From an uncultured Gemmatimonadaceae bacterium (GTDB lineage: Bacteria > Gemmatimonadota > Gemmatimonadetes > Gemmatimonadales > GWC2-71-9), in NCBI GenBank assembly GCA_964647615.1, contig CAZYIV010000007.1:1950-65949 (forward strand): DNA of 64,000 nucleotides. Reading direction: 5' to 3'. Under the pieces are notes generated by a model. That model did not search any database. It saw nothing but the letters and a program-made list of their open reading frames with translations, and had not been told where the DNA came from. The translations under genes were made by a program, and so were the position numbers. Positions within the stretch are counted from its first letter, which is position 1. Each line of letters starts with the position of its first letter. Below, piece after piece: positions 3,300-21,334 of this stretch.

Positions 3300-3540
3300 G
3301 GCCCCTTCCGCGTCCAGGGACCGGTCTGGGTCGGGCCTGCCCGGACGGACAGGCGCCCGAGGCCATGGTGAACATCGCGGGGGGAGGGGGAAGTGGTCGT
3401 GAACCCCGGTATAAGGATGACTTCAAAGGGGTTAGAGGCGGGTGGGGGTGTGGCAGAGGGGCCACTCTGGCGTGGGGGGGCCGGGATCGGTACACTCCAC
3501 CGCCGGCCCGAGCCGGCCGCCCCTCCCCCAGCCCAGCGCC

Positions 3541-5088: not shown

Positions 5089-5285
5089 CCCCCCCCCTCC
5101 ACGGGGGGAGGTCCCGGGATGACAACCGGATGACAGCATTGTCATGCGGCCGTGTGAGTCTGGTCACTTCCGTCCAGTTTTCAGCCGTTTAGCATTGGGG
5201 CACTTCACGCGGCCACCCTTACCGCGTGTGGCGGGGGCCGGCGCCGGCTGGCGCGGCACCCCTCGACCCCAGTGGGAGGTACCCG

Positions 5286-6194: not shown

Positions 6195-6229
6195 CCGCCG
6201 CAACCTTTTGACCCGATCAGGCGTCATAG

Positions 6230-6266
6230 CCCCCCGGAGAGACCCTCCGGGGGGCGTTGCGTTTCC
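6230..6266 (+). terminator. rho-independent terminator after the lipoprotein-like gene
   Basis: Perfect 10-bp stem CCCCCCGGAG (6230..6239) / CTCCGGGGGG (6245..6254) with a 5-nt loop, followed by CGTTGCGTTTCC. Confidence 0.6.
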
Positions 6267-6384
6267 AGCCAGGTGCTGGCCCCCCGCCGCGGTTGCCGTC
6301 CCGTGACCCGACCCGCAAGTTAGCCCCACCGCCCCGGCCCCCCGCCGGGCGGGGTCTGCCTGACATTCCCGCCCGGGAGAGCCG

Positions 6385-7746
6385 ATGTCGCTGCAGCGCA
6401 AGCGCGTCCTGATGGCCGCCGCCCTGCTCCTGGTGGGCGCGCCCACCACCTGGCTGCTGGCCCGCAACCCCGCCACCGCCGGGGCGGCGATCCTCGCGCC
6501 GGTGAAGCGCGGCGAGTTCGTGGTCACGGTGACCACGTCCGGGGAGCTCCGGGCCCTCAAGTTCGTCCAGATCACGGTCCCGCCCAACGTGCAGGAGGCC
6601 GAGATCTACCAGATGAAGATCGCCTCGCTGGTGCCCGAGGGGACGGTGGTGAAGGAAGGCGAGGTGGTGGCCGAGCTGGACCGGTCGACCCTCGCGCCGA
6701 AGATGGCCGAGGTGCAGCTCGCCCTGCAGAAGGCCCAGGCGGTGTACGAGCAGGCGATGCTCGACTCCACCCTCAATCTCTCCAAGGCCCGGGAGGACAT
6801 CCGGAGCATGGAGCTGGGGCTTGAGGAGAAGCGGCTGGCCAAGGAACAGGCGGCCTATGAGGCGCCCACGGTGCAGCGGCAGGCGGAGATCGACCTGGAG
6901 AAGGCGGAGCGGGCACTGGCCCAGGCCAAGCTGGACTACAAGACCAAGACCGACCAGGCGAAGGCCAAGATGAGCGAGGTCGGCGCCGACCTCGACCGGC
7001 AGAAGAACAAGCTGGGTGTCATCCAGCAGGTGATGCAGGGGTTCACGATCACCGCGCCCGCCCCGGGCATGGTGATCTACGTGAAGGAGTGGAACGGGCG
7101 GAAGCGGACGACCGGCTCGCAGGTGAACAGCTGGGACCCGGGCGTGGCCACCCTGCCGGACCTGACCCACATGGAGTCGGTCACCTACATCAACGAGATC
7201 GACGTCCGCAAGGTGACGGTGGGGCAGCCGGTGACGCTCACCCTCGACTCCGATCCGACCAAGCGGCTCAGCGGCAAGGTGACCGCCGTGGCCAACGTGG
7301 GGGAGCAGCGGCCCAACACCGACGCGAAGGTGTTCGAGGTGAAGGTGGACGTGACCCAGGTGGATACCACGCTCCGCCCGGGGATGACCACCGGCAACGT
7401 GATCGAGACCCTGCGGCTCCCCGACGCCCTGTTCATCCCGATCGAGGCGCTCAACTCCGCCGATGGCGTGCCCTTCGTCTACAAGGCGAACGGCAGCCGG
7501 GTGGTGCGGCAGGAGGTGGTGACCGGGGCGATGAGCGAGGACGAGGCGGTGATCACCGCCGGTCTCGACGCGGGCGACAAGGTGGTGCTCTCGCCGCCGC
7601 ACGACGGCGCCAGCCTGCCGCTGGTGCGGCTGCCCGGATCCACCGCCGGGATGCCCGCCGCCGGCGGCGACACCACGGAGAAGAGCCAGCCGTTCGTCCC
7701 GCCGGCCGACTCGGCCGCCGGCACCCGGCCCGCCCGGCGGAACTGA
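6385..7746 (+). CDS. efflux periplasmic adaptor (HlyD/MacA family)
   Basis: 453 aa with an N-terminal anchor (MSLQRKRVLMAAALLLVGAP), barrel-sandwich and coiled-coil hairpin regions (LALQKAQAVYEQA...LAQAKLDYKTK), and beta-barrel domains typical of MacA-type adaptors. Confidence 0.85.
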   Translation: MSLQRKRVLMAAALLLVGAPTTWLLARNPATAGAAILAPVKRGEFVVTVTTSGELRALKFVQITVPPNVQEAEIYQMKIASLVPEGTVVKEGEVVAELDRSTLAPKMAEVQLALQKAQAVYEQAMLDSTLNLSKAREDIRSMELGLEEKRLAKEQAAYEAPTVQRQAEIDLEKAERALAQAKLDYKTKTDQAKAKMSEVGADLDRQKNKLGVIQQVMQGFTITAPAPGMVIYVKEWNGRKRTTGSQVNSWDPGVATLPDLTHMESVTYINEIDVRKVTVGQPVTLTLDSDPTKRLSGKVTAVANVGEQRPNTDAKVFEVKVDVTQVDTTLRPGMTTGNVIETLRLPDALFIPIEALNSADGVPFVYKANGSRVVRQEVVTGAMSEDEAVITAGLDAGDKVVLSPPHDGASLPLVRLPGSTAGMPAAGGDTTEKSQPFVPPADSAAGTRPARRN

Positions 7747-7749
7747 GGC

Positions 7750-9144
7750 GTGGCCAGCCGCCTGGAGGAGCTGACCCGCGCGGGCCGCGACCTCGCCGCC
7801 CACGGAAGCTTCGGCCTGCGCACCGCGCTGGAGGCGGTGCGCCACAACCGGCTCCGCGCGGCGCTCACCTCGCTCGGGATCCTGTTCGGGGTGGCCTCGG
7901 TCATCGCCATGCTGGCGGTGGGGAAGGGCGCCGAGCAGGAGATCCTGGAGCAGATGCGGCTGCTCGGCTCCAACAACGTCATGATCACCCCGCTGGTGGA
8001 GCAGAAGGAGGGGGAGGCCAAGGACGAGACCACCAAGGAGGTCAAGAAGTTCTCCCCCGGGCTCACCTACACCGACGCCGAGGCCCTCCGGCGGATGATC
8101 CCCGCCGTCGAGGCCACCAGCGCCGAGATCGTCCTCAATACCTCCATCACCCGGGAAGGCCGGCGCCGGAGCGGCAAGGTCCTCGGGGTGGATACCACTT
8201 ATTTCCGGCTCACCAACCTGGAGCTGGGCCGGGGCCACTGGTTCAACGAGGAGCAGGTGGCTCACGGCCTGCCGGTCGCGATCATCGGCGAGGGCCTCCG
8301 GACCCGGTTCTTCACCACCGAGGATCCGATCGGCAAGCCGATCAAGGTGGGCAACAGCTGGCTCACGGTCGTCGGGGTGCTCGCCGACCGGCGCGTCACC
8401 TCGGAGACGGTCAGCCGCCTCGGCATCCGCGACGCCAACATGGACGTGTACGTCCCGGTGCATACCCTGCTCCTGCGCTACCGGAACCGCGCGCTCCTCA
8501 CGCAGCGCGACATCGAAGCCGCCGCCCGGCAGGGCACCTTCACGCCCACCGGCGAGGAGGAGAGCGAGGAGGTCCGGGCGGAGCGCACCAACCCCAACCA
8601 GCTGGACCGGATCATCGTGCGGGTGGCCCGCTCGGACCAGGTGAGCGGCGTGTCCGAGGTGGCGCAGCGGATGCTGGCGCGGCGGCACAACGGCGTGGTG
8701 GACTTCGAGGTGACGGTGCCGGAACTGCTGCTCAAGCAGGAGCAGCGCACCCGCGCGATCTTCAACATCGTGCTCGGCGCGATCGCGTCCATCTCGCTGG
8801 TGGTGGGCGGGATCGGGATCATGAACATCATGCTGGCGTCGGTGCTGGAGCGGATCCGGGAGATCGGCGTCCGCCGGGCGGTCGGTGCCACCGAGCGCGA
8901 GATCCTGTTCCAGTTCCTGATGGAGGCGGTCCTGATCAGCGTCACCGGCGGGGTGGCCGGGGTGCTGCTCGGCACGGGGCTCAGCGTCGGCATCGAGCGC
9001 GCGGCCGGGGTGCGGACCATCGTCTCCATGCTGTCCATCCTGGTGGCCTTCGGCGTGTCGTTCGCGGTGGGGTTGCTGTTCGGCATTGTCCCCGCGATGC
9101 GCGCCGCCCGCCAGGACCCGGTCACCTCCCTCCGGTACGAGTGA
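7750..9144 (+). CDS. MacB-type ABC transporter permease (MacB_PCD + FtsX domains), no ATPase domain
   Basis: GTG start 4 nt after the macA-like stop. The protein has an N-terminal TM, a large periplasmic domain, and a C-terminal FtsX 3-TM bundle (IFNIVLGAIASISLVVGGIGIMNIMLASVLERIREIGVRRAVGA). No Walker motifs are present. Confidence 0.85.
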   Translation: MASRLEELTRAGRDLAAHGSFGLRTALEAVRHNRLRAALTSLGILFGVASVIAMLAVGKGAEQEILEQMRLLGSNNVMITPLVEQKEGEAKDETTKEVKKFSPGLTYTDAEALRRMIPAVEATSAEIVLNTSITREGRRRSGKVLGVDTTYFRLTNLELGRGHWFNEEQVAHGLPVAIIGEGLRTRFFTTEDPIGKPIKVGNSWLTVVGVLADRRVTSETVSRLGIRDANMDVYVPVHTLLLRYRNRALLTQRDIEAAARQGTFTPTGEEESEEVRAERTNPNQLDRIIVRVARSDQVSGVSEVAQRMLARRHNGVVDFEVTVPELLLKQEQRTRAIFNIVLGAIASISLVVGGIGIMNIMLASVLERIREIGVRRAVGATEREILFQFLMEAVLISVTGGVAGVLLGTGLSVGIERAAGVRTIVSMLSILVAFGVSFAVGLLFGIVPAMRAARQDPVTSLRYE

Positions 9145-9149
9145 GCCCC

Positions 9150-10610
9150 ATGCCCCGGAATTTCCTCACCGCCCTGGGCGTGCTGTGCGCCCTGCTCGGG
9201 GCCCGGCCGGCGCCCGTCGCGGCCCAGGCGCCGCTGACCCTGCAGGACGTGGTGGACCGGGCCCTGTCCAGGAGCCGGCTGGTGGAGGCGGCCCGGGCCA
9301 CGCGGGATGCCGCGCGCTACCGCGACCGCGCCTTCTACTCCGGTCAGCTGCCCCGGCTCTCGCTCGGCGGGCGGGTGCCGACCTACAATCGCTCGATCAT
9401 CTCGGTCATCCAGCCGGACGGCAGCACCAGCTTCCGGCCCCAGGACCAGGTGACCACCGACCTCAGCGCCACGCTGTCCCAGACGGTGCCGCTCACCGGG
9501 GCCGACGTGTTCGTGTCCTCCGCGCTCTCCCGGCTCTCGGTGACGGGCCAGAATTCATTCCGCACCTGGTCCTCGACCCCGGTGACGGTCGGCATCCGGC
9601 AGCCGCTGTTCCAGCCCAACGCCGCGGGCTGGGACCGGCGGGAGGAGCCGTTCCGTGCCGAGCTGGCGGAGCGGCAGTACCGCGAGACCCGGGAGGACAT
9701 CGCGCTGGAGGCGGTGAGCCGGTTCTTCGACCTGTACGCCGCCGAGGTGGCGTTCCGGAACGCGGACGGCAACGCCGCGACCAACGACACCCTCTACACC
9801 CTCAACCAGGGCCGCTTCCAGGTCGGCAAGATCGGCGAGAACGACCTGCTGCAGAGCGAGCTGGCGCTGCTCCGTTCCCGTAATGCCCTCGACGGCGCGC
9901 GGCTCACCGCCGAGCGGGCCCGCGCCGCGCTCCGGCTGCTGCTCGACCTGCCCCCCGGCGAGCCGCTCGCGATTGACGCCAGCGCGGAGGTCCCGGACGT
10001 CACCCCCGACACCGCACTGGCGGTGCAGGAGGCGCTGCGCAACCGGGCCCTCGCCAGCGACGCCGACCTGCAGGCGGTGCAGGCGCGGCGCCGGGTGTCG
10101 GAGGCGCAGCTCAACAACGGGCTGGGCGCCACGGTCTCCGCCAGCTACGGCTTCAACGCCACCGGCGGCACCGCCCGCGACGCCTACCAGAACCTGCTCG
10201 AGGCGCGCCAGTTCACGGTGGCGGTGGACATCCCGCTGCTGCAGTGGGGGCTCCGGAAGGAGAGCGTGGCGGCGGCCCGGGCCGACCAGGAGCGGGTCCG
10301 GCAGGCGACGCGCCTCAGCCTGGACCAGCTGGCCCAGGATGCTCACTTCGCGGCGCTGGAGCTGGCGCAGGCCCGGAGCACGCTGACCCTCTCCGCCAAG
10401 GCGGACACCGTCGCCCAGCGGCGCTTCGAGGTGGCCTACAACCGCTACGTCATCGGCCGGATCGCGATCGACAACCTGTACATCGCCCAGAGCGAGAAGG
10501 ACGCGGCGCTGGGGCAGTACGTGCAGTCGCTGCGGGGCTTCTGGGCCGCCTACTACCGCCTGCGGCGGGTGACGCTCTTCGACTTCCAGACGGGGCAGCC
10601 GATCCGGTAA
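9150..10610 (+). CDS. TolC-family outer membrane efflux protein
   Basis: Signal peptide MPRNFLTALGVLCALLGARPAPVAAQA. The protein shows a duplicated helix/beta OEP-type architecture (LTLQDVVDRALSRSRLVEAARA...). The ORF-track frame from 7089 is only a 5' extension over the upstream genes. Confidence 0.85.
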   Translation: MPRNFLTALGVLCALLGARPAPVAAQAPLTLQDVVDRALSRSRLVEAARATRDAARYRDRAFYSGQLPRLSLGGRVPTYNRSIISVIQPDGSTSFRPQDQVTTDLSATLSQTVPLTGADVFVSSALSRLSVTGQNSFRTWSSTPVTVGIRQPLFQPNAAGWDRREEPFRAELAERQYRETREDIALEAVSRFFDLYAAEVAFRNADGNAATNDTLYTLNQGRFQVGKIGENDLLQSELALLRSRNALDGARLTAERARAALRLLLDLPPGEPLAIDASAEVPDVTPDTALAVQEALRNRALASDADLQAVQARRRVSEAQLNNGLGATVSASYGFNATGGTARDAYQNLLEARQFTVAVDIPLLQWGLRKESVAAARADQERVRQATRLSLDQLAQDAHFAALELAQARSTLTLSAKADTVAQRRFEVAYNRYVIGRIAIDNLYIAQSEKDAALGQYVQSLRGFWAAYYRLRRVTLFDFQTGQPIR

Positions 10611-10646
10611 CGGGCTGGCCGCGATCATTGACGGGCCTCCTCGGGA

Positions 10647-12281
10647 ATGAATATTGAGGGGATGCCCACCGCACCGCGGACGGAGGCGGGTCTGACCGTC
10701 CAGGTGATCGGTCCTCCCGGCTCCGATCCCGCCGCCGGGGACGCTCCCCGCGCCACGCCACCGGTCAGCACCGCGCTGCCTCCGGACCTGCTCGACGAGG
10801 TCCGGGGGCGGGTGCGGTTGCTCGCCCTGGTGCTCTGCATCGCCTTCGCCTTCGATCCCCTGGTTCTCGGCATCCGCTGGCTGCTCCCGATGCTCACCGG
10901 GGCGGCGCTGGATGCCGACTTCGGGGTGGACCTCCCCTACGCGCTCTGCTCCGGAGTGGTGGCGCTGGCATCGCTGTGGCTGTGGCGCTTCGCGGGAAAC
11001 CGCGAGCGGTCGGCCACCCGGCTGCTCAACATCGGGCTGGCCTACGAGGTGCTCGTCTGCCTCGTGATCAGCGCCACCGACGTGGTCCCCTACTACCGGA
11101 GCACCGGGCTCGTGCCCAGCATGACCTGGGTGCCCGCGGTCGTGATCTTCTTCCCGCTGGTCCTCCCGGGGCCCCCGCGCCGCATGCTGCTGGCGGCCAT
11201 CCTCTCCGCGGCCACCGGCCCGCTCACCCTCGTGTTCCTCGACGTCAGCGGCCGGATCACCGTGGACCCGGGCGCCTATTTCCGCTGGACGGTGCACGGC
11301 CTCTTCGCGGTGCTGATCTCCTACGCGGGCGCGCGGGTGGTGTACGGCCTCGGCCGGGAGGTCGCCCGCGCCCGCGAACTGGGCAGCTACCACCTGGGCG
11401 AGATGCTCGGCCGGGGCGGGATGGGTGAGGTCTACCGCGCCACCCACCGCATGCTGGCGCGGCCCGCGGCCATCAAGCTCATCCGCCCCGAGATGATCGG
11501 CGGCGGGGATGCCGAGGCGGCGCGGATCGCGATCCGGCGCTTCCGCCGCGAGGCGGAGGCGGCGGCGTCGCTGCGCTCGCCCCACACGGTGGAGCTGTAC
11601 GACTTCGGGGTCACCGCGGAGGGGACGTTCTACTTCGTGATGGAACTGCTGGAGGGGCTGGACCTCGAGACCCTGGTGCGGCGCGAGGGGCCGCTCCCCG
11701 CGCCGCGGGTGGTGCACGTCCTGCGACAGGTGTGCGCCTCGCTGGCGGAGGCCCATGCCCGGAGCCTGGTGCACCGGGACATCAAGCCGGCCAACATTCA
11801 CATCGGCCGGCTGGGGCTGCAGCACGACTTCGTGAAGGTGCTGGACTTCGGGCTGGTGAAGTCCTCCGCGCCGGACGAGGCCGGCCAGTCCCACGCCACC
11901 GGCGCGGGGATGGCCGCGGGAACGCCGGGCTACATGGCCCCCGAGGTCGCGCTGGGCGAGGCGGTGGATGGTCGCGCGGATCTCTACGCGCTGGGCTGCG
12001 TGGGCTACTTCCTCCTCACCGGCCGCCTGGTATTCGAGGGGGGCAACGGGCTCCAGATGGTGGCCCGCCACGTGCGCGACCAGCCGGTCCCGCCCTCGCA
12101 GCGCACCGAACTCCCGGTGCCGGCGGACCTCGAGGCGCTGCTGCTCGGCTGCCTGGCCAAGGAGCCGGCGGGGCGGCCCCAATCCGCGCTGGTGCTGGGG
12201 CGGCAGCTGGCCGAGCTGGCGGTCGAGCCGTGGACCGAGGCGGAGGCCGCCGGCTGGTGGCAGGCCCACCACCCCGCATGA
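10647..12281 (+). CDS. Ser/Thr protein kinase with multi-TM N-terminal domain (kinase at the C-terminus)
   Basis: Hanks motifs GRGGMGEVYRA, AIK, HRDIKPANI, DFG and GYMAPE lie in the C-terminal half. There are about 5-6 hydrophobic helices in residues ~60-240. ATG 10662 is an alternative start. Confidence 0.85.
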   Translation: MNIEGMPTAPRTEAGLTVQVIGPPGSDPAAGDAPRATPPVSTALPPDLLDEVRGRVRLLALVLCIAFAFDPLVLGIRWLLPMLTGAALDADFGVDLPYALCSGVVALASLWLWRFAGNRERSATRLLNIGLAYEVLVCLVISATDVVPYYRSTGLVPSMTWVPAVVIFFPLVLPGPPRRMLLAAILSAATGPLTLVFLDVSGRITVDPGAYFRWTVHGLFAVLISYAGARVVYGLGREVARARELGSYHLGEMLGRGGMGEVYRATHRMLARPAAIKLIRPEMIGGGDAEAARIAIRRFRREAEAAASLRSPHTVELYDFGVTAEGTFYFVMELLEGLDLETLVRREGPLPAPRVVHVLRQVCASLAEAHARSLVHRDIKPANIHIGRLGLQHDFVKVLDFGLVKSSAPDEAGQSHATGAGMAAGTPGYMAPEVALGEAVDGRADLYALGCVGYFLLTGRLVFEGGNGLQMVARHVRDQPVPPSQRTELPVPADLEALLLGCLAKEPAGRPQSALVLGRQLAELAVEPWTEAEAAGWWQAHHPA

Positions 12282-13690
12282 CTGCTTCCGCCGACGGGGC
12301 CCGCCCGCTCGACCGCCTGCTCGGACTGGTGACGGTGGTGCATCCGGGTGAGGGGCCCACCGCGCTGCTGCTGGCGGCCAATGTCTTCCTGCTGCTCACG
12401 GCGTACTACGTCATCAAGCCGGCGCGCGAGGCGCTGATCCTCGCCGCGGACGGGGCGGAGGTGAAATCCTACGCCGCTGCTGGCCAGGCGGTGCTGCTGC
12501 TGGTGCTGGTGCCCCTCTATGGCGCGCTGGCGGACCGGCTGCCGAGACGGCGGCTGCTCAACGCAGTGACCGCGTTCTTCGTGGCGTGCCTGCTCGGCTT
12601 TGCGCTGCTGGCCCGGGCGGGTGTGCCGGTCGGGGTGCCCTTCTTCCTCTGGGTGGGGATCTTCAACCTGATGGTCGTGGCCCAGTTCTGGGCCTTCGCC
12701 AACGACCTCTACACCCGGGACCAGGGCGAGCGGCTGTTCCCGGTGGTCGCCTTCGGCGCCTCGGTGGGCGCGGTGGCGGGGAGCGCGGTGGCCGGCGGGC
12801 TGATTCCGCTGGTGGGTGTGCCGGCGCTGTTGCCGGTCGCCGCGGTCCTGCTCGCGGCGGCGACGATGCTCGGCAATGTCGCCGACGCACGCGAGCGCGC
12901 CCGCTGCGAAGCCGGGCTGCCCCCGGCGCTCACCACCGCGGAGATCCCCGCGGCCACCGGCGAGTACCTGGTGCAGGAGACGGCCGCCGACTCGGAGGAC
13001 CGTGTGACGGTCTCGCTGCCCGGCACGCCTGGGCGCCGGGGGACCTTCCGCCTGGTCTTCGGCAACCGGTACCTGCTGGGGATCGCGCTGCTGCTGCTGA
13101 TGGTCAACTGGGTCAACACCACCGGCGAGTACCTGCTGGGCCGCACCGTGGCGCAGGCCGCGGAACAGGCGATCGCCGCCGGCACCGCGGGCGGCCTCAG
13201 CGCGGGCGAGTACATCGGGGCATTCTACTCCCGGTTCTTCCTGGGGGTGAACGTCCTGGGCCTGCTGCTGCAGTTCTTCGTGGTGGCGCGGCTGATCCGC
13301 TGGGTGGGCGTGCGCTGGGCAGTGCTCGCGTTGCCGCTCCTGGCGCTGGCGGGCTACATCTGCCTGGTGTTCGTGCCCGCGCTGGCGGTGATCCGCTGGG
13401 TGAAGACGGCGGAGAACGCCACCGACTACTCCCTGCAGAACACGGTGCGCAACGTGCTCTTCCTGCCCACGACGCGGGACCAGAAATACAAGGCGAAGCA
13501 GGTCATTGACGGCTTCTTCGTGCGGGCCGGCGACGTGCTCTCCGCCGCCTCGATCTACGTGGGCACCACCTGGCTGGCCTTCGGCACCACCGCCTTCGCG
13601 GCACTCAACCTGGCGCTGGGCGTGGTGTGGCTGGCGCTGGCCGCGGCGACGGGGCGGGGCTACGCACGGCTCGCCGGGAGGCTGGCATGA
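12278..13690 (+). CDS. TLC/AAA-family (ATP:ADP translocase-like) nucleotide-transporter homologue
   Basis: The ATG overlaps the kinase stop (ATGA). 470 aa, about 12 TM. It carries the family hallmark FWAFANDLYTRDQGERLFPVVAFGASVGAV and an N-terminal LLLTAYYVIKPAREAL helix. Confidence 0.75.
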   Translation: MTASADGARPLDRLLGLVTVVHPGEGPTALLLAANVFLLLTAYYVIKPAREALILAADGAEVKSYAAAGQAVLLLVLVPLYGALADRLPRRRLLNAVTAFFVACLLGFALLARAGVPVGVPFFLWVGIFNLMVVAQFWAFANDLYTRDQGERLFPVVAFGASVGAVAGSAVAGGLIPLVGVPALLPVAAVLLAAATMLGNVADARERARCEAGLPPALTTAEIPAATGEYLVQETAADSEDRVTVSLPGTPGRRGTFRLVFGNRYLLGIALLLLMVNWVNTTGEYLLGRTVAQAAEQAIAAGTAGGLSAGEYIGAFYSRFFLGVNVLGLLLQFFVVARLIRWVGVRWAVLALPLLALAGYICLVFVPALAVIRWVKTAENATDYSLQNTVRNVLFLPTTRDQKYKAKQVIDGFFVRAGDVLSAASIYVGTTWLAFGTTAFAALNLALGVVWLALAAATGRGYARLAGRLA

Positions 13691-16212
13691 GCGCACGAGC
13701 GGCGCTGGCCGTGCTCCTCCTCATCAGCACCGGGGCGGCGGGACAGGTGGCGCGGATCTCCCCGGCGCCCGCGCCGGGCACCACCTCGGTGATCGCCCCG
13801 ATCGGCGAGCGCTATGCCGGCGGCTGGCTGCGCCGCTTCCTGCTCGGCAGCAACTACCGGGAGCTCTGGTCCGCCCCCGTCACGATTCCGGTGCTCGACC
13901 TCGAAGGCTGGCATGGCGGGCTCACGCCGGTCTCCCGCGGTGGCGGGCAGCAGACGACCAGCCTGCGGCTGCACGCCGCCGACGGCACCGATCACTACTT
14001 CCGGTCCATCGACAAGGACCCGACACCCAATCTCCCGCCCGAGCTGGTAGGGACCGTCGCCGCCGGCATCGTCCAGGACCAGATCAGCAGCGCCCTGCCC
14101 ACGGCCCCGCTGGTGGTGGCCCCGCTGCTCGAGGCGGCCGGCGTGCTGCATGGGACGCCCGAACTCTACATCCTGCCGGATGACGAACGGCTGGGGGAGT
14201 TCCGCCCCGCACTGGCCGGGCTCATCGGCATGCTGGAGCCGCGGATTGGACCGGGGTGGGGCGGCGCGACGGAGGTGATCTCCGGCGACGAACTGTTCGA
14301 GCGGGTGGCGCGGAGCCCCGACGACCGGGTGGACGTGCCCGCGCTCCTCACGGCCCGGCTGGTGGACATGCTGGTGGGCGACTGGGACCGCCATCGGGAC
14401 CAGTGGTCGTGGGCGAGGTTCGGCGATGCAGTGCCGCGGCGCTGGGTGCCGGTGCCGCGGGACCGCGACTTTGCCATGGTGAGCTACGACGGCCTTCTGC
14501 TTGCTGCCGCGCGGATGAGCCTGCCGCAGTTGATCGCCTTCAAGCCGACCTACCCGGACATCCTGGGCCTCACCTGGAACGGCCGGGAACTGGACCGCTA
14601 CTTCCTGCTGGAGCTGGCGCCCGCCGCCTGGGATTCGATCGCCGCCGCGGTGCAGGGCGCGGTCACCGACCGCGTGATCGCCGGCGCCGTCGAGCGGCTG
14701 CCGCCGGAGCACCGCGCGCTCATCGGGGACCGGCTCGAGGTCACGCTGCGCCAGCGCCGCGATGGCCTCCCGGCTGTCGCGCGGCGATTCCACCGCATGC
14801 TCGCGGAGCAGGTGGACCTCTTTGCGACCGACGCCTCCGAGGTGGCTGAGGTGACCTCGGCCGGGGACCACGCGGCCCGGGTGCGGCTCGGGCGCCCGGG
14901 CGAGGCGCCCTACTTCGACCAGGTGTTCGACCGCCGGGACACGCGGGAACTGCGCCTGTTCCTTCGCGGGGGCGACGACACCGCCCGGGTGGAGGGTCAC
15001 CGGCCGGACGGCATCCGGGTACGGGTGATCGGCGGTGATGGGGCCGACGTGGTGGAGGCCGCCCCGGGCGGCGCCCGCGCCTACGACACCGATCCGGGGA
15101 CGGTGGTCAGCGCGGGGGTGCACCTCGACCGGCGGCGGTACACGCCGCCACCCAAGCGCATCCCGACCGAGATTCCGCCGCGGGACTGGGGGCACCGGTG
15201 GCAGTCGGGGGGCCTGGTCAGCGGCGGGCCGGATATCGGCGTGCTGCTGGGTGTCAGCCGGACCTACACGGCGTACCGCTTCCGCACCCTCCCGTTCGCG
15301 AGCCGGCACCGGTTCCGCGCCGGCGTCGCCACCGGGCCGTGGACGTATCGGGCCGACTACAAGGGTGAGTTCCGCCCCGAGAACTCGCGCAGCCTCGCGG
15401 TGCTGCGCCTGCGCGCCTCGGGCATCGACGTCCTGCGGTTCCACGGCCTCGGCAACGAGACCTCGATCACCGATTCGCGGACCTTCTATCGCGTCACCCA
15501 GCAGCAGTATGGGGTCGAGCTGTCGCTGGTGGAGCCGCTGGGCCGGCACGGCGAGTTCTCGATCGGCCCGCGCGGGCGATATGTGTCCACCGACGACCGG
15601 CCCGGGCGCTTCCTCGCCACGCTCAACGCCTATGGCGCCGATGGTTTCGGGGAGGTGGGCGCGCACGGGACCCTGACGCTCGACTCGCGCCCCGCGCCGA
15701 ACGCCGCCACCACGGGGATCCGGCTCACGGCCGGCGGGTCGGTGTATCCCGCGTGGTGGGATGTGACGGAGGCCTATGGCGAGCTGCATGGCGAGGCCGC
15801 CACGGTGCTCAACCTCCCCGCGCCGCTCGACCCCTCGCTCCGGGTACGCGTGGGCGGCCAGCGGATCTGGGGCAAGTACCCGTACTTTGATGCCGCCTTC
15901 ATCGGCGGGGCCGGCACGGTGCGGCTGGGACGGGAGAACCGCTTCGCCGGCGACGCCAGCGCCTGGCTCAACAGCGAGCTGCGGCTGGCGCTGGGCCGCC
16001 TCTTCCTTGGCGCGCCATCGGACTTCGGCGTCCTCGGCCTGGGAGACGTCGGCCGGGTGTTCCTCGCAGGCGAGCACTCGGATGTGTGGCACGGCGCGGC
16101 GGGTGGCGGGGTCTGGGTCTCGATCCTCGACCGCGCCAACAGCATGAGCCTGGTCGTGGCGCGGGGCGAGGAACGCACCGCGTTCTACTTCCAGGCCGGC
16201 TTCGGCTTCTGA
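13687..16212 (+). CDS. exported 841-aa protein: unknown N-terminal domain (GDWDRHRDQW motif) plus C-terminal beta-barrel
   Basis: The ATG overlaps the upstream stop (ATGA). Signal peptide MSARAALAVLLLISTGAAGQ. The C-terminal ~350 aa have alternating-hydrophobic strands and end in ...AFYFQAGFGF (terminal aromatic), typical of OM barrels. Confidence 0.65.
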   Translation: MSARAALAVLLLISTGAAGQVARISPAPAPGTTSVIAPIGERYAGGWLRRFLLGSNYRELWSAPVTIPVLDLEGWHGGLTPVSRGGGQQTTSLRLHAADGTDHYFRSIDKDPTPNLPPELVGTVAAGIVQDQISSALPTAPLVVAPLLEAAGVLHGTPELYILPDDERLGEFRPALAGLIGMLEPRIGPGWGGATEVISGDELFERVARSPDDRVDVPALLTARLVDMLVGDWDRHRDQWSWARFGDAVPRRWVPVPRDRDFAMVSYDGLLLAAARMSLPQLIAFKPTYPDILGLTWNGRELDRYFLLELAPAAWDSIAAAVQGAVTDRVIAGAVERLPPEHRALIGDRLEVTLRQRRDGLPAVARRFHRMLAEQVDLFATDASEVAEVTSAGDHAARVRLGRPGEAPYFDQVFDRRDTRELRLFLRGGDDTARVEGHRPDGIRVRVIGGDGADVVEAAPGGARAYDTDPGTVVSAGVHLDRRRYTPPPKRIPTEIPPRDWGHRWQSGGLVSGGPDIGVLLGVSRTYTAYRFRTLPFASRHRFRAGVATGPWTYRADYKGEFRPENSRSLAVLRLRASGIDVLRFHGLGNETSITDSRTFYRVTQQQYGVELSLVEPLGRHGEFSIGPRGRYVSTDDRPGRFLATLNAYGADGFGEVGAHGTLTLDSRPAPNAATTGIRLTAGGSVYPAWWDVTEAYGELHGEAATVLNLPAPLDPSLRVRVGGQRIWGKYPYFDAAFIGGAGTVRLGRENRFAGDASAWLNSELRLALGRLFLGAPSDFGVLGLGDVGRVFLAGEHSDVWHGAAGGGVWVSILDRANSMSLVVARGEERTAFYFQAGFGF

Positions 16213-16274
16213 GCCGGGCGCAACCGGCGGACCGCCGCGCGACGGCGCTCGCGGCGCTGACCGGCGCGCTGCTG

Positions 16275-18362
16275 GTGGCCTTCCAGCTCGCCGGGAAGGC
16301 GACCCGCGAGGCCCTCTTCCTCTCCGCGTTTCCGATCACCGACCTGCCACGGATGGTCGTCGGCGCCGCGGTCGTCTCGGCGGCGGTCACCCTGCTGCTT
16401 GCCCGCGCCATGGGGCGGCATGGCCCCGGGCCGCTGATTCCCGCGCTCGCGGGGGTGAGCGGCCTGGGCCTCCTGCTCGAGTGGGGGCTGTCCCGGGCGG
16501 CACCGGCGGCAGCCGCAATCCTCTACTACCTGCACTTCAGCGCCCTCGGGGCGGTGCTCATCTCCGGGCTGTGGACCCTGGTCACCGAACGGTTCGACCC
16601 CCGCGAGGCGCGTCGTCGGCTCGGACCGATCATGGCGGGCGCCTCAGCGGGGGGCCTCGTCGGCGGCGCCGCGGCCGCCCCCCTCGGTGCGTGGCTGCCT
16701 GTCTCGGGCCTGTTGCCGCTGCTGGCGTTGCTGCACCTCGCGGCAGCGCCGCTGCTGCTCCAGTTGGGCGCCGGGCCGCCGGTCCCGTCGCCTTCAGGGG
16801 CAGGCGCCGAACCGGGGCCGCTGGCGACCCTCGGCGGATCGTCGTACCTGCGGCGGCTCGCGGCGCTCGCCGCGCTGGCGGCCCTCGCGGAGGGGCTCCT
16901 CGACTGGGTCTTCAAGGCGCGGGCGGTCGACGCCATCGGGGACGGTACCGCGCTGCTCCGCTTCTTCTCCCTGTTCTACACCGCCACGGCACTGGTCGGG
17001 ATCCTGGTGCAGGGCGGTGTACTGCGCGGCCTCATCGCCCGGCTGGGGCCGGGCCTCGCGGCCGCGGCCCAGCCGCTGGGCGTGCTGCTCGGTTCGATCG
17101 CCGGTCTGCTGCTGCCCGGACTGTGGCCGGTGACCCTGGCGCGTGGCGGGGAGATCGTGCTCCGCACCTCGTTGTTCCGCGGCGCTGGTGAACTCCTCTT
17201 CTCCCCGGTGGCACCGCGCGCCAAGCACGCCACCAAGCTGCTCGTGGATGTCGGTGCCGCGCGCCTGGGCGACGTTGTTGGCGGGCTGCTGCTCCAGATG
17301 ATGCTTGTCGTCGGTGTCGCCCGGGTACCGGGGCGAATGCTGCTGCCGACGGCCGCGGCCGCTACGATCGCGATCCTGGTCGCGTTGCGCCTCCGCCGTG
17401 ACTACCCCGCGGCGCTCGCGGCGGGCCTCGCCGCTCGCGCGGAAGGTGGCAGGGAGCCGATGGAGAGTCGGTCGCTGGCCATGCTGGAGACGGTGGGAGG
17501 CTACGAGTTGCCCTCCCGTGCCACGCGAACCGGGGCACCGGACCCCGCGCCGTCGGAGCCGGTGGAAGAGCCGTCCGGCCCGGCCTGGGAGAGCCGGGAT
17601 GCCGGGCGGATCCGCGCCGCGCTCGAGGGCATCGTGCTCGGTCGGGGCGAGGTGGACCCCGTGGTGGCGCTGGTCGGGTGGGACGAGGTGGCCCCGGCGG
17701 CGATGGCCGCGCTCGCTCGGGTCTCCGTGCGGGAGGCGGGCCGGCTCGCGGCACGGATGCTCGATCCGGCAGAACACTTCGCCATCCGGCGGCGGCTGGT
17801 GCGGGTCTTGGCCGAGGCCCGGTCCCCCGAGGTGCCCGGGGCGCTGCTGCGGGGGCTGGACGATGCCCGGTTCGAGGTGCGCTACCTGGCAGCGCGGGCG
17901 CTGCACCGTCAGGTCGCGCTGGGGGCGCCGCCTCCGCCGCGAGAGCGTGTGCTCGCCGTCGTGGCGCGCGAAGTGGCCGTGGGCCGGCCGCTGTGGGAGG
18001 GCCGGCAGCTGCTGGACGAGGCCGAAGACCTGGCCTCGCCGATGGCGATGGGGGTGCTGCGAGCCCGGGCCGACCGCAGCCTGGAGCACGTCTTCACCCT
18101 CCTGGCGCTGGTACTGCCCCGGGGGCCGGTGCGCCTCGCCTGCCACGCACTGCACACCACCGACGCCCAGCTCAGGGGCACGGCGCTCGAGTATCTCGAA
18201 AACGTGCTGCCGCCCGAGATACGCGACGGCCTCTGGCCCTTCCTGGAACCGGAGACCGCGCCGCGTCGCGAGTCCGGGCGGGCGGAGGAGGTGCTGGACC
18301 GGCTGCTGCGATCGCAGGAGTCCATCGCGCGGGCCCTGGAGGCCCGCGCGCAGAAGCCGTAG
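16275..18362 (+). CDS. diverged TLC/MFS-like membrane domain fused to C-terminal HEAT repeats (start uncertain)
   Basis: The membrane half is paralogous to 12278..13690 (ALLVAFQLAGKATREALFLSAF; LWTLVTERFDPREARRRLGPIMAGASAGG). The C-terminal half has HEAT-like repeats (RRRLVRVLAEARSPEVPGALLRGLDDARFEVRYLAARAL). GTG 16275 is the first canonical start after the upstream stop. Homology suggests an earlier start (CTG 16209 or GTG 16086). Confidence 0.6.
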   Translation: MAFQLAGKATREALFLSAFPITDLPRMVVGAAVVSAAVTLLLARAMGRHGPGPLIPALAGVSGLGLLLEWGLSRAAPAAAAILYYLHFSALGAVLISGLWTLVTERFDPREARRRLGPIMAGASAGGLVGGAAAAPLGAWLPVSGLLPLLALLHLAAAPLLLQLGAGPPVPSPSGAGAEPGPLATLGGSSYLRRLAALAALAALAEGLLDWVFKARAVDAIGDGTALLRFFSLFYTATALVGILVQGGVLRGLIARLGPGLAAAAQPLGVLLGSIAGLLLPGLWPVTLARGGEIVLRTSLFRGAGELLFSPVAPRAKHATKLLVDVGAARLGDVVGGLLLQMMLVVGVARVPGRMLLPTAAAATIAILVALRLRRDYPAALAAGLAARAEGGREPMESRSLAMLETVGGYELPSRATRTGAPDPAPSEPVEEPSGPAWESRDAGRIRAALEGIVLGRGEVDPVVALVGWDEVAPAAMAALARVSVREAGRLAARMLDPAEHFAIRRRLVRVLAEARSPEVPGALLRGLDDARFEVRYLAARALHRQVALGAPPPPRERVLAVVAREVAVGRPLWEGRQLLDEAEDLASPMAMGVLRARADRSLEHVFTLLALVLPRGPVRLACHALHTTDAQLRGTALEYLENVLPPEIRDGLWPFLEPETAPRRESGRAEEVLDRLLRSQESIARALEARAQKP

Positions 18363-18368
18363 GCGGGC

Positions 18369-20267
18369 CTACCGGCTCGTATCGGGCTCCGCCAGGAAGA
18401 ACTGCAGCCCGCCCCCGGCATCGCCGGTGAGCAGGTCCAGCCGTCCGGTGCCGCGCAGGTCGGCGAACAGCGGCGTGGAGTAGGGCGGGAGAGCGAGGGC
18501 GAGGGTGGTATCGCGCTCGAAGCGCGGCGCCTGCCGCGTGCCGGTGTTGCGGAAGATGACGGGTGCGCCGCGCTCCGTCCCGACGATCAGGCTCAGCCGG
18601 CCATCCCCGAACAGGTCGGCGAACCGCGGGGCGACCCGGCGGCCGAGCCGCTCGCCGAGCAGATCGTCGGTCACGAGCGTGAAGCGGGGCTGGCCCGGCG
18701 TGCCGTCATTGCGGAAGAAGAGGATCCGCCCGGACGACTCGCCGACGAAGAGGTCCAGGTCGCCGTCGGCGTCGATGTCGGCCAGCGTCGGCACCGCGTT
18801 GCTGCCGTGGGGCAGGCTCACGAACGCCGAGTCCACCAGCGTGAACCTGGGCGGCCCATTCCCCCCCTCGTTGTGGTACCAGGCCAGCGGTGCATGGAAC
18901 TGCCCCAGCACCAGGTCGGGCCGGCCATCGCCGTCGAGGTCCCCGAGCGCGGGGGCGTAGTGGAAGGCCGGCGCCACCGGCAGCCGGTCCCGGAGCTGGA
19001 ACGCCGGCGCGGTGGCGCTGCCGGTGTTCTCGAACCAGTAGAGGCCGCCGGTGCGGAAGTTGTCGGGCTCGATCTTGGTGCCGACCAGCAGGTCCAGGTC
19101 GCCGTCGCCATCGAGGTCGGCCAGCGCCGGCACGCTCTCGCTCCCCAGGTCCACGCCGTCGAGCAGGCGGCGGGTGCGCAGCGACCACTCGGCGGGCCCG
19201 GTCTGGTCCAGCAGGAAGAGGTTGTCCTGGCTGGTGAGCACCGGATTGAACGCGCCCCCCAGCACGCCCACCACGAGGTCCAGATGGGTGGAGTCGCGCG
19301 GATGCCCGAAGGCGGGGGCGTTGTAGCCGCTGGTCTCCAGCGGGGCGTTCTGGGGGAAGGGGATGCGCTCGCCGTGGAAGTTCATCCGGCTGCAGCTGCC
19401 GACGTTGCGGAGCCACAGCAGCCCCGGCTCGAAGAAGTCGCCCCAGAGGATGTCGTAGTCACCGTCGCCGTCGAGGTCGGCCACGGCCAGGGTGTTGGCG
19501 CCGTGCAGGCTGGCGCGCTGCCCGATGATCTGGATGTCCTCGAACCGGTCGGTCACCAGGCGGAAGCGCGGCGCGCGGGTGGAGTCGAAGCCTGCCAGCT
19601 CGTAGCGCGCCATGGTGCCGTCCACCCGGCCGAGCATCATGTCCATCCGGCCATTGCAGTCGATGTCGGCGAACTGGGCGATGTTCTGTCGGTCGGCGTA
19701 GATCGGCGTACCATCCACCGCGCGCACGGTGTCGGCCAGCACCTCGAACCGGGGCGCGCCCGGCCGCCCGGCGTTGTGGAAATAGCGGATGTAGCTGTAC
19801 TTCGACTCGGCGAGCAGGTCGGGGAGCCCGTCCCCGTCCACGTCCGCGAAGCGGAACCACTCCCCGATGTCGAGCCCCTCGTAGCGGTCGGTGCGCCAGG
19901 TCCAGGCCAGGCTGTCGCCGCGGCCCGCAGGCGAGTAGCGCTGCAGCTCCCCGGTGTACTCCTGCACGAACAGATCCGGCCGCCCGGTGCCCTCGATGTC
20001 CACCAGCTGGGGCCGGGGATGGTCGAAGCCGCCGAGAAAGGCCAGCGCGTAGGCGCGGCCGGTGGTGTTGCGGACGGGGAAGGGGGAGATGCTGCGGACA
20101 TAGCGCGCCGCCCCCGCGGCGGACGCAGGGGCGGCGGTGGCGGGGGCCGGCGCGGGGGTGCCGCGGGGCCCCGCCGCGGGCGGCGTGGCGCAGCCGCCCG
20201 GGAGGAGCGAGGCGAGCAGGACCAGCGGAGCGGCGAGCCGTCGCGGGGACCAGCTCGCCCGGGTCAC
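18369..20267 (-). CDS. FG-GAP/VCBS-repeat (CRTAC1/ASPIC-like) lipoprotein
   Basis: GTG start overlaps the upstream stop (GTGA). Signal peptide with Cys: MTRASWSPRRLAAPLVLLASLLPGGC. Repeated D.DGDG..DL and FxNxG motifs (DVDGDGLPDL, DLDGDGDYDIL, DLDGDGDLDLLVG, DIDADGDLDLFVG). Confidence 0.75.
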   Translation of the reverse strand: MTRASWSPRRLAAPLVLLASLLPGGCATPPAAGPRGTPAPAPATAAPASAAGAARYVRSISPFPVRNTTGRAYALAFLGGFDHPRPQLVDIEGTGRPDLFVQEYTGELQRYSPAGRGDSLAWTWRTDRYEGLDIGEWFRFADVDGDGLPDLLAESKYSYIRYFHNAGRPGAPRFEVLADTVRAVDGTPIYADRQNIAQFADIDCNGRMDMMLGRVDGTMARYELAGFDSTRAPRFRLVTDRFEDIQIIGQRASLHGANTLAVADLDGDGDYDILWGDFFEPGLLWLRNVGSCSRMNFHGERIPFPQNAPLETSGYNAPAFGHPRDSTHLDLVVGVLGGAFNPVLTSQDNLFLLDQTGPAEWSLRTRRLLDGVDLGSESVPALADLDGDGDLDLLVGTKIEPDNFRTGGLYWFENTGSATAPAFQLRDRLPVAPAFHYAPALGDLDGDGRPDLVLGQFHAPLAWYHNEGGNGPPRFTLVDSAFVSLPHGSNAVPTLADIDADGDLDLFVGESSGRILFFRNDGTPGQPRFTLVTDDLLGERLGRRVAPRFADLFGDGRLSLIVGTERGAPVIFRNTGTRQAPRFERDTTLALALPPYSTPLFADLRGTGRLDLLTGDAGGGLQFFLAEPDTSR

Positions 20268-21334
20268 GGCGCGGCGGCTCCCATGCCCGCTCCGTCCGGC
20301 GCGGTCTCCATGGTGCGGAGCACCTGGTAGCCCTTCGTGGAGACGGACACGACGTATCCCGGACGGTCGGTCACGCCATGGGCCATGCCCACGCCGCCCA
20401 TGTCCATCGTCTGGCCGCTGTTGTGGGCGCTGACGAAGGCACGCCCATTCGGGGTGAAGGCCAGCCCATGGGGCTGGGCGAAGCCCTCCCCGGTGATGGT
20501 GTGGGTGACCTGCCAGCTGCGGGCATCCACCACCGACACGTCGTTGGAGCGCTGGTTGGGGACCCAGATCTCCTTGCCATCCGGGCTGTAGGCCGGGTGC
20601 CAGGGCCAGTCACCCACCTTCGCCACCTTGTCGAGCGCCGGATGGCCCGGGTCCTTGAGGCTCAGGGCGAGGATCTCGCCGGTGAGCTGCGCGGTCGCGG
20701 CCAGGGTCTTGCCGTCGGGCGAGAGCGCGAACTGCACGATCACCCGGTTGGCCTCGCCCGGGATGTCCACCACGTCCACCTGGTCCTTCGCGACGTCATA
20801 GACGGCGACCTGGTTGGTGCCGAGGCTGCCGATGTAGACGTGCTTGCCGTCGCGGCCCACGGCGATGGCGTGGGGCCGCGGGATCAGGACTTCCACTTCC
20901 TCGATGGACATGTCGGCGGTCTTGATCACCCCGATGCGCGAGGGTGCCCGCACCGCCGACATGGTGTGGGTGACGTACAGGTGCTGGCCGGTGCGGTCGA
21001 GCGCCAGCAGCCCGGGGATTTCCATCGTGGCCCGGCCGACGACGTGGTTGGCCCGGTCCAGCTTGAGCACCACGTTGTCCCCGATGAGCGAGACGTACCA
21101 GAACCGGCCGTCGGGCGCCACGGCGATGTGGTGCGGCTTGGCGTGATCCGAGAAGCCCATCGCCTGCAGGTCCACGGTGGCCACCACGCTGTCCGCGGTG
21201 GCATCCACGACGGTGATCTTCGCCGCCGCCTGGTTGGCGATGTACACCAGTGGGGGGAGCCCCCCGGCCGGCGGCCGGGGGGCCGCGGCGCCGCCGAGCA
21301 GCGCCGCGGAGGTGAGGAGCAGGGTTCCGATCAT
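20264..21334 (-). CDS. YVTN-type beta-propeller repeat protein (secreted)
   Basis: Start at MIGTLLLTSAALLGGAAAP (ATGA overlap with the upstream gene). Repeated PHxIAVxPDGxxxYV units (KPHHIAVAPDGRFWYVS, PHAIAVGRDGKHVYIG, PHGLAFTPNGRAFVS). Confidence 0.75.
   Translation of the reverse strand: MIGTLLLTSAALLGGAAAPRPPAGGLPPLVYIANQAAAKITVVDATADSVVATVDLQAMGFSDHAKPHHIAVAPDGRFWYVSLIGDNVVLKLDRANHVVGRATMEIPGLLALDRTGQHLYVTHTMSAVRAPSRIGVIKTADMSIEEVEVLIPRPHAIAVGRDGKHVYIGSLGTNQVAVYDVAKDQVDVVDIPGEANRVIVQFALSPDGKTLAATAQLTGEILALSLKDPGHPALDKVAKVGDWPWHPAYSPDGKEIWVPNQRSNDVSVVDARSWQVTHTITGEGFAQPHGLAFTPNGRAFVSAHNSGQTMDMGGVGMAHGVTDRPGYVVSVSTKGYQVLRTMETAPDGAGMGAAAP

Follow-up and report, generated by a model that had tools for sequence, protein, structure and literature searches.

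A conserved four-gene cluster of Gemmatimonadota with an exported kinase-barrel protein and NTT-family transporter homologues

What would two homologues of ATP:ADP translocases do in a free-living bacterium, encoded together with a membrane kinase and an exported barrel protein? The question is raised by four consecutive plus-strand genes, here called G1 to G4, in a stretch of 64,000 nucleotides from an uncultured Gemmatimonadaceae bacterium (the window; positions 1,950 to 65,949 of contig CAZYIV010000007.1, G+C content approximately 72%). A previous annotation of this DNA, made from the letters alone and referred to below as the sequence-only reading, had described a coupled operon and suggested that a nucleotide could be moved across the inner membrane for use in the envelope. 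In the analysis reported here, the cluster is tentatively interpreted as a conserved envelope phosphotransfer module, in which an extracytoplasmic kinase would be supplied with ATP across the inner membrane via the NTT homologues; we give this interpretation somewhat less than an even chance of being correct. The evidence consists of the predicted fold and invariant residues of G3, the family membership of G2 and G4, and the conservation of the gene set across phyla. The four open reading frames (ORFs) are as follows.

10647 to 12281, plus strand: G1, membrane Hanks-type Ser/Thr kinase, 544 amino acids (aa)
12278 to 13690, plus strand: G2, NTT/TLC-family (AAA family) transporter homologue, 470 aa, with about 12 transmembrane (TM) helices
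13687 to 16212, plus strand: G3, exported kinase-barrel protein, 841 aa
16209 to 18362, or from GTG 16086, plus strand (frame 16086 to 18362): G4, NTT-HEAT fusion with an NTT-like domain of about 12 TM helices and a HEAT domain

The genes and their products

The ATGA start/stop overlaps at 12278-12281 (G1/G2) and 13687-13690 (G2/G3) were read from the sequence directly, as was a GGGAGG Shine-Dalgarno-like site in the end of G2 (13676-13681, plus strand), 5 nt ahead of the G3 ATG. The frame of G4 opens at 16086, ahead of the G3 stop codon at 16210-16212. The tight coupling of the four genes and the early opening of the fourth frame were thus correctly described in the sequence-only reading. The parts of G3 on which the interpretation depends are listed below, all on the plus strand.

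13687 to 13743, plus strand: signal peptide (residues 1-19)
13783 to 14811, plus strand: HipA/CtkA-like kinase domain (residues ~33-375), made up of an alpha/beta and a helical domain
13933 to 13956, plus strand: P-loop-like motif S83-R-G-G-G-Q-Q-T90 (compare HipA S150-V-A-G-A-Q-E-K-T)
14014 to 14016, plus strand: Lys110 (FRSIDKDP), candidate ATP-phosphate-binding lysine (compare HipA K181 in HIIKLP)
14377 to 14406, plus strand: catalytic loop G231-D-W-D234-R-H236-R-D-Q239-W (compare HipA G-A-T-D309-G-H311-A-K-N314)
14461 to 14469, plus strand: D259-R-D261, candidate metal-binding Asp (compare DFG, or HipA D332)
14812 to 15129, plus strand: all-beta linker with GGxGxD-like motifs (residues 376-481)
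15193 to 16209, plus strand: 16-strand Omp85 barrel (residues 503-841)

Full-length G3 was modelled with AlphaFold2 (AF2) using 60 homologues (pLDDT 83, pTM 0.80), and the N-terminal domain was also modelled alone (pLDDT 82). Using Foldseek, the full model was found to match the barrels of Sam50, BamA, and TamA (E = 4e-9), while the N-terminal domain matched Helicobacter pylori CtkA (E = 1.6e-6) and then HipA (E = 3e-5), both atypical Ser/Thr kinases of the PI3/4-kinase-like branch. PI3K-gamma, PI4KII-alpha, Fam20C, and CotH were also recovered, and all 50 among the top matches listed were kinases. The 'kinase-like motif' of the sequence-only reading is therefore part of a complete predicted fold of the HipA/CtkA type, in which the catalytic motifs are all intact. 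The order of these motifs is shared with HipA and CtkA: a GxQ(E/Q)(K/T) P-loop, a Lys, a DxHxx(N/Q) loop, and a downstream Asp. The catalytic Asp is separated from D259/D261 by 25 to 27 residues, compared with 23 in HipA, and Gln239 takes the place of the catalytic-loop Asn. From an alignment of 75 family members, reaching down to 37% identity, it was found that D232, D234, R235, H236, Q239, D259, and D261 are invariant and that K110, whose role is proposed from motif order and spacing, is present in 74, the remaining row having a gap. The P-loop residues G86, G87, Q89, and T90 are conserved in 70 to 71 of the 75 (approximately 93 to 95%). Such invariance of the active site is the pattern that an active enzyme would show.

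Searches by sequence were less informative. Neither Pfam nor NCBIfam gave a match to the N-terminal domain even at an E value of 1, and in an hhalign alignment with Escherichia coli HipA the catalytic loops were superposed, but the E value of 0.58 was not significant. As the similarity to HipA and CtkA is insignificant at this level (E = 0.58 to 2.2), the kinase assignment draws on the fold search together with motif conservation, and the domain is regarded as a family separate from HipA, alike in fold and catalytic motifs. G3 further differs from HipA in its predicted export by Sec, in its fusion to an outer-membrane barrel, and in having no HipB-like antitoxin partner.

The barrel half is matched by NCBIfam Omp85_fam at E = 1e-9, which is below the cut-off of that model; PF01103 is precomputed for many G3 homologues, while G3 itself carries no Pfam domain. 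Barrel motifs of the L6 type, VR(L/G)G...NR.AGD, and a strand motif, G.xDxGxV, are present. No POTRA domain was found in G3, since residues 375-481 of the model contain only beta strands, without a beta-alpha-alpha-beta-beta unit, and gave no Pfam POTRA match. Some relatives are named 'BamA/TamA family outer membrane protein' in databases, a label that reflects likeness at the level of the barrel only, as the linker has no POTRA-like element. Orthology of G3 with BamA or TamA was considered and rejected on the same grounds, there being no N-terminal POTRA. The model thus presents G3 as a Sec-exported protein with a C-terminal 16-strand Omp85 outer-membrane barrel without POTRA, bearing out the signal peptide and barrel of the sequence-only reading. 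In having such a barrel after an N-terminal soluble domain, G3 resembles other members of the Omp85 superfamily (BamA, TamA, Sam50, and, for the arrangement, PlpD), from which it differs in that the N-terminus is a predicted kinase fold and not a set of POTRA repeats or a patatin lipase.

G2 and G4 were assigned from the following features and from profile comparisons.

12686 to 12775, plus strand: G2 hallmark helix, beginning FWAFANDLYTRDQGERLF
12932 to 12967, plus strand: G2 invariant Thr-rich central loop TTAEIPAATGEY
16569 to 16655, plus strand: G4 NTT-type helix LWTLVTERFDPREARRRLGPIMAGASAGG
17532 to 18359, plus strand: G4 HEAT-repeat domain, probably cytoplasmic

The N-terminal part of G2 matches Pfam TLC (PF03219) with 39.6 bits against a cut-off of 21, and TIGR00769 matches the C-terminal part. 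When searched against the PDB, the G2 family profile identified ADP,ATP carrier protein 1 (NTT1, 9j3n; E = 4e-6) over four collinear stretches, and homologues of G2 in public sources are named 'AAA family ATP:ADP antiporter' or 'Npt1/Npt2'. G4 alone reached 20.9 bits with Pfam TLC, at but under the cut-off of 21. A profile of 18 G4 orthologues matched NTT1 (9j3j; E = 1.7e-10, profile positions 154-396) and HEAT-type alphaRep proteins (E = 7e-21, positions 483-583), and G4 aligned to the G2 family in hhalign with a probability of 98.5% (E = 3e-15); G4 is identified as an NTT-HEAT fusion on these grounds. HEAT_2 scored 27.3 bits on the isolated C-terminal domain (GA 27.7). G2 and G4 are accordingly classed, by sequence and profile comparison, as divergent members of the NTT (TLC, ATP:ADP translocase) family that would reside in the inner membrane, in agreement with the family named in the sequence-only reading. 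NTT-HEAT fusions have already been catalogued as widespread and uncharacterised, and the role of NTT/TLC transporters in free-living bacteria was raised explicitly as a question in the same study (Major et al. 2017, PMC5381601).

The start of G4 is uncertain. In its relatives a GTG lies 4 to 6 nt past the G3 stop, ahead of codons for a conserved peptide, xADRRA. This peptide is also encoded in the window, but CTG 16209, overlapping the G3 stop as cTGA, stands in place of the GTG. The sole canonical start upstream of TM1 in the window is GTG 16086, and G4 may thus begin at the noncanonical CTG 16209 or at GTG 16086. The closest relative, locus L013, likewise lacks a nearby canonical start. The region 16086-16280 may accordingly reflect a noncanonical start, an overlap of 127 nt from GTG 16086, or a truncated TM1.

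In G1, a region of about six TM helices, judged by hydropathy, precedes the catalytic domain, which bears out the multi-TM N-terminus of the sequence-only reading.

10812 to 11348, plus strand: N-terminal TM region (residues ~56-234)
11388 to 12188, plus strand: Pkinase domain (residues 248-514; Pfam PF00069, E = 5e-41)

The catalytic motifs GRGGMG (GxGxxG), AAIK, HRDIKPAN, DFG, and MAPE are all visible in the translation, and from hydropathy and positive-inside reasoning the kinase domain, lying after six TM helices, is probably cytoplasmic. A relationship of the TM region to DUF4956 was ruled out (hhalign E = 0.69). The six-TM kinase is duplicated or triplicated in tandem in L013 (5237-8517), L004, L039, and L085 (218-5177), while the window has one copy.

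Conservation of the cluster and the wider G3 family

To identify relatives of the cluster, one genome per GTDB species was scanned, and 80 loci were returned; GTDB as a whole holds at least 548 stretches matching G3. An orthologue of G2 and/or G4 was found within a few kilobases of G3 in 27 of the 80 species loci, and all four families were found together in 19; many of the remaining loci end at contig ends. Among the carriers of the cluster are members of the Gemmatimonadales, of the Krumholzibacteriota (L001/L006, L045), and of the Latescibacteria (L076), as well as unclassified metagenome-assembled genomes (MAGs). At least five gene orders were distinguished across Gemmatimonadota, Krumholzibacteriota, and Latescibacterota (KIN, kinase; MPE, metallophosphoesterase).

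Order 1 (window): KIN-G2-G3-G4
Order 2: KIN-G2-MPE-G3-G4
Order 3: G4 and KIN diverging from G3-PAP2, with G2 convergent
Order 4: G2-G3-KIN-G4
Order 5: G4-G3-KIN-G2

The adjacency of a TLC gene by chance is estimated at approximately 1 to 2% per locus. Gene content has thus been kept through rearrangement across phyla, which is strong evidence for functional coupling, and the conservation of the neighbourhood on which the sequence-only reading depended extends across three phyla.

The commonest accessory gene of the clusters that carry NTT homologues, here type A, encodes a metallophosphoesterase of 380 aa; additional copies of the TM kinase, an HtrA-type protease, and a PAP2 phosphatase also occur. 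In one subclade an HtrA/DegP-type protease (Trypsin_2 plus PDZ) lies between the kinase and G2 (L069:7159-8574, L020, L021, L032, L048, L085:5174-6601, and L086:3635-6598); in L086 one gene call of 987 aa spans both kinase and HtrA, through either a genuine fusion or a frameshift. In the Krumholzibacteriota locus L001 (10589-11443) a PAP2-family phosphatase follows G3 directly, replacing the metallophosphoesterase of other loci. In L005, a close relative on a 1-Mb contig with a G3 that is 63% identical, G4 is detectable for its first ~128 residues only (12501-12878) and G2 is absent, reflecting either decay of the cluster or an assembly frameshift.

The members linked to TLC genes are a subset of a much larger G3 barrel family, with more than 1,747 matches at 90% clustering. 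The kinase domain alone has 3,172 representatives at 50% clustering, and full-length members are nearly all of about 850 aa. The catalytic half of this large family is without a Pfam domain. To count the neighbours of G3, all ORFs from 77 distinct loci were clustered, and clusters of antisense-shadow ORFs were left out.

Metallophosphoesterase: 39 of 77 loci, the most frequent neighbour, usually immediately upstream of G3
Hanks kinases: 34 of 77 loci
G2: 23 of 77 loci
DUF4956 membrane proteins: 23 of 77 loci
G4: 21 of 77 loci
Phytase-like/SdiA-regulated beta-propeller: 19 of 77 loci
CYTH-PPK1 polyphosphate kinase (1,063 aa): 9 to 10 of 77 loci, directly after a DUF4956 gene
MscS-type channels: 6 of 77 loci
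HtrA: 6 of 77 loci

The metallophosphoesterase carries a lipobox and, among solved structures, is most closely related to purple acid phosphatases (PAP)/TRAP (E = 1e-8); the beta-propeller protein is exported, with a signal peptide or lipobox. Three alternative inner-membrane partners of the kinase-barrel protein were thus observed: NTT homologues (type A, as in the window), DUF4956 with polyphosphate kinase (type B), and MscS (type C). In a neighbour-joining tree of G3, which is rough, carries no support values, and is indicative only, type A appears in at least three clades and is interleaved with types B and C. The larger barrel family, the phosphatase lipoprotein as its top neighbour, and the earlier cataloguing of NTT-HEAT fusions had escaped the sequence-only reading.

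The type B operon of L068 (7021-19283) comprises genes for a DUF4956 protein, a phytase-like propeller, a PAP-like lipoprotein phosphoesterase, a G3 paralogue, a second DUF4956 protein, CYTH-PPK1 (1,063 aa), and a Hanks kinase containing TPR repeats. Type B was also seen in L062, L064, L067, L079, L034, L036, and L044. Type C has the order MscS-family channel gene, lipoprotein phosphoesterase gene, and G3 paralogue, and occurs in L030, L031, L038 (5793-10767), L047, L052, and L063. In L077 (8357-15677) two G3 paralogues lie less than 5 kb apart, and beside each is a DUF4956 or propeller gene; a genome can thus carry several copies of the family (L077; also L011/L016 and L080/L082).

A possible mechanism and its alternatives

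An Omp85 barrel has its N-terminus in the periplasm by default, and for this reason the kinase domain of G3 is placed there, hanging from the barrel. The periplasm is normally regarded as ATP-free, and the kinase would need a phosphoryl donor from the cytoplasm. G2 and G4 are proposed to supply it by an exchange in which ATP leaves the cytoplasm and ADP, possibly with Pi, enters it from the periplasm. We infer the direction of this exchange; outward supply is argued from the G3 paralogues that adjoin other cytoplasm-to-periplasm devices, either DUF4956 with CYTH-PPK1 or an MscS-type efflux channel, and in these sister clusters polyphosphate, or a channel, would take the donor-supply role. G3 would phosphorylate an envelope substrate. 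A protein is favoured because of the similarity to HipA/CtkA, the HtrA accessory gene, and the PAP-like lipoprotein; a lipid or glycan is also entertained because of the PI4K-like fold and the PAP2 gene. Where its gene is present, the purple-acid-phosphatase-like lipoprotein might reverse the modification. G1 may regulate the transporters from the cytoplasm, with the Thr-rich loop TTAEIPAATGEY of G2 or the HEAT domain of G4 as candidate targets. The full extension of this scheme, to periplasmic ATP-dependent phosphorylation in Gemmatimonadota, Krumholzibacteriota, and Latescibacterota, with ATP exported by NTT homologues and used by a HipA-like outer-membrane kinase, a phosphatase reversing the reaction, and sister systems delivering polyphosphate, is possible, though we consider it doubtful.

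Several observations weigh against ATP supply to a periplasmic G3. The TM-scores of the N-terminal domain to kinases in Foldseek are modest (0.42 to 0.53), and searches of the PDB with the G3 sequence or profile gave only an insignificant match to CtkA at the catalytic loop (E = 1.6 to 2.2). In sequence, G2 and G4 lie very far from the characterised NTTs, and E values of 1e-6 to 1e-10 were obtained from profiles only. PamNTT1, the chlamydial protein that is the one reconstituted bacterial ATP/ADP NTT, is kinetically biased to ATP import and works in one orientation only (PMC1951785). Some relatives of G3 have no transporter within 10 kb, and the gene for the phosphatase lipoprotein is absent from the lineage of the window itself. 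Nucleotide export could lose ATP by leak through porins, and the kinase domain could instead be exposed at the surface, the layout of G3 being that of type Vd (PlpD-like).

The main rival explanation is scavenging, which we regard as unlikely but worth serious weight: G3 would bind or process external nucleotides or organophosphates at the outer membrane, phosphatases of the periplasm (the PAP-like lipoprotein, the phytase-like propeller, and PAP2) would free Pi or nucleosides, and G2 and G4 would import nucleotides, like the NTTs of intracellular bacteria; in the paralogous clusters, PPK1 would store the phosphate in the form of polyphosphate. The most common neighbours of the family, PAP-related phosphoesterases, the phytase-like/SdiA-regulated propeller, and PPK1, are explained well in this way, and Gemmatimonas aurantiaca, the type species, was isolated as a polyphosphate accumulator. 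Import is also what characterised NTTs perform (PMC1951785; PMC5381601). The kinase catalytic loop, the Mg site, and the lysine would not, however, have to be so strictly conserved for binding or hydrolysis. Omp85 barrels are not, to our knowledge, known as small-solute importers, MscS partners release solutes outward, DUF4956 with a polyphosphate-making enzyme resembles the outward-threading logic of VTC, and no Pho-box or PstS-type gene was present in the clusters examined. The recurrence of DUF4956 (23 loci) and CYTH-PPK1 (9 to 10 loci) beside G3, together with the published and unexplained linkage of a secreted CotH kinase, a VTC-like polyphosphate polymerase, and DUF4956 (10.1101/768473), could point instead to a system centred on polyphosphate, which the kinase-like domain would use or handle (by phosphorylation, attachment, or export through the barrel) while the NTT homologues move Pi, PPi, or ADP. 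This is rendered improbable by the window and all type A loci, which have neither PPK1 nor DUF4956 near the cluster, and by the P-loop, Lys, and catalytic-loop set of G3, which is that of nucleotide-dependent HipA-type kinases.

A surface location would make G3 a type Vd-like autotransporter that displays or releases a kinase, in the manner of the secreted CtkA or of CotH, which is bound to the coat, with neighbours that are only regulatory or loosely related. The order of an N-terminal passenger, a linker, and a C-terminal 16-strand Omp85 barrel is that of PlpD; CtkA, the closest structural match, is a secreted kinase; and the GGxGxD-like motifs of the linker resemble extracellular Ca-binding repeats. 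The G3 model, however, has no POTRA and an all-beta linker, the provision of ATP to a kinase outside the cell would be still more difficult to account for, and the tight, rearrangement-resistant linkage to two inner-membrane transporters would need a reason, leaving this explanation with a slim probability. There may, finally, be no system at all, with chance neighbours and G3 an ordinary BamA/TamA-type assembly factor bearing a degenerate pseudokinase. The database naming of some relatives and the position of the N-terminal domain outside every Pfam family fit that account, which is nevertheless very improbable given the co-occurrence of the four families in three phyla and at least five gene orders, the invariant catalytic residues in a protein without POTRA, and the ATGA overlaps.

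Each part of the cluster can be assigned to a known superfamily (NTT/TLC, Hanks kinases, Omp85, or the PKL fold). Eukaryotes provide an analogy for the supply of ATP to an extracytoplasmic kinase, since the lumenal kinase Fam20C operates with the exchanger SLC35B1/AXER in the secretory pathway, and thylakoids have an ATP/ADP carrier. Like Fam20C, which is among the structural matches of G3, the proposed kinase would work in a compartment that makes no ATP itself, fed by an ATP/ADP antiporter; the transporter families (SLC35 and mitochondrial-carrier type) are unrelated to NTTs, and the likeness is one of analogy only. G2 and G4 are tied to the NTT/TLC (AAA) family by Pfam and by profile matches to solved NTT1, and G4 by its NTT-HEAT architecture, but they occur in free-living soil and sediment phyla and are genetically linked to an exported kinase, whereas characterised members import ATP (PMC1951785). 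A set of CotH kinase, VTC-like polyphosphate polymerase, and DUF4956 adjoins Gram-positive pel operons, its function unexplained (Whitfield et al., 10.1101/768473; 10.1101/2024.04.20.589940). As in that set, the type B clusters link an atypical secreted kinase, DUF4956, and a polyphosphate-making enzyme (CYTH-PPK1), and the type B operon looks like its diderm counterpart. The CotH set differs in being Gram-positive, with a CotH fold and neither barrel nor NTT, and the window has NTT homologues in place of the polyphosphate module. For the linkage of CotH to polyphosphate genes and DUF4956, the paralogous G3 clusters suggest a common explanation, namely, donor export.

Like the sequence-only reading, which knew of no described system of this composition, literature searches found no description of a kinase-Omp85 fusion, of the four-gene module, or of a function for NTT homologues in free-living bacteria, and nothing relevant on ATP:ADP antiporters of Gemmatimonadota. 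The module is rated as lying outside the known kinds of system, and the functional model as a hypothesis. If the full extension to ATP-dependent phosphorylation in the periplasm were true, it would provide the first function for NTT homologues of free-living bacteria and overturn the textbook view of a periplasm without ATP-driven chemistry. The role of NTT/TLC proteins in such bacteria can be tested here with a fixed, interpretable partner, and kinase chemistry in the Gram-negative periplasm, with its energy source, becomes directly testable; G3 is the clearest candidate for such chemistry known to us.

Surroundings of the cluster in the window

No convincing promoter or terminator was found between the four genes, in agreement with the single operon of the sequence-only reading, but such a scan is weak evidence in Gemmatimonadota. 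One promoter-like site overlaps the G1 start codon, and the three weak terminator-like sites all lie within coding sequence, close to the number expected by chance (1.6 in shuffled sequence). A scan of 5000-19500 against Rfam gave nothing at E ≤ 0.1. When compared with the models of anti-phage defence systems in PADLOC, the cluster gave generic Ser/Thr kinase-domain matches for G1 only, and nothing for G2, G3, or G4. The metallophosphoesterase, DUF4956, PPK1, MscS, and HtrA genes that accompany relatives of the cluster were sought across the window, and none is present.

Upstream, also on the plus strand, are genes for an HlyD-family adaptor (6385-7746), a MacB/FtsX-type permease (7750-9144), and a TolC-like outer-membrane factor (end at 10610), with no ABC ATPase gene recognised beside them. 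As only 36 nt separate the TolC-like gene from G1, the transcript may be longer in the lineage of the window. These three genes were considered as members of the module and left out of it, since synteny is limited to the closest relative, L013, and the other loci lack them. Downstream of G4 and convergent with it (18369-21433, minus strand) are genes for an FG-GAP repeat protein of 632 aa and a seven-bladed beta-propeller/lactonase-like protein of 389 aa, which are not conserved beside the cluster in other loci. A second Hanks-kinase domain is encoded at 51885-52655 and is 37% identical to the catalytic domain of G1. Two domains not usually found together, FHA (a phosphothreonine reader) and soluble lytic transglycosylase (SLT; a cell-wall enzyme), are encoded by the ORF at 3442-5088, not far from the kinase cluster.

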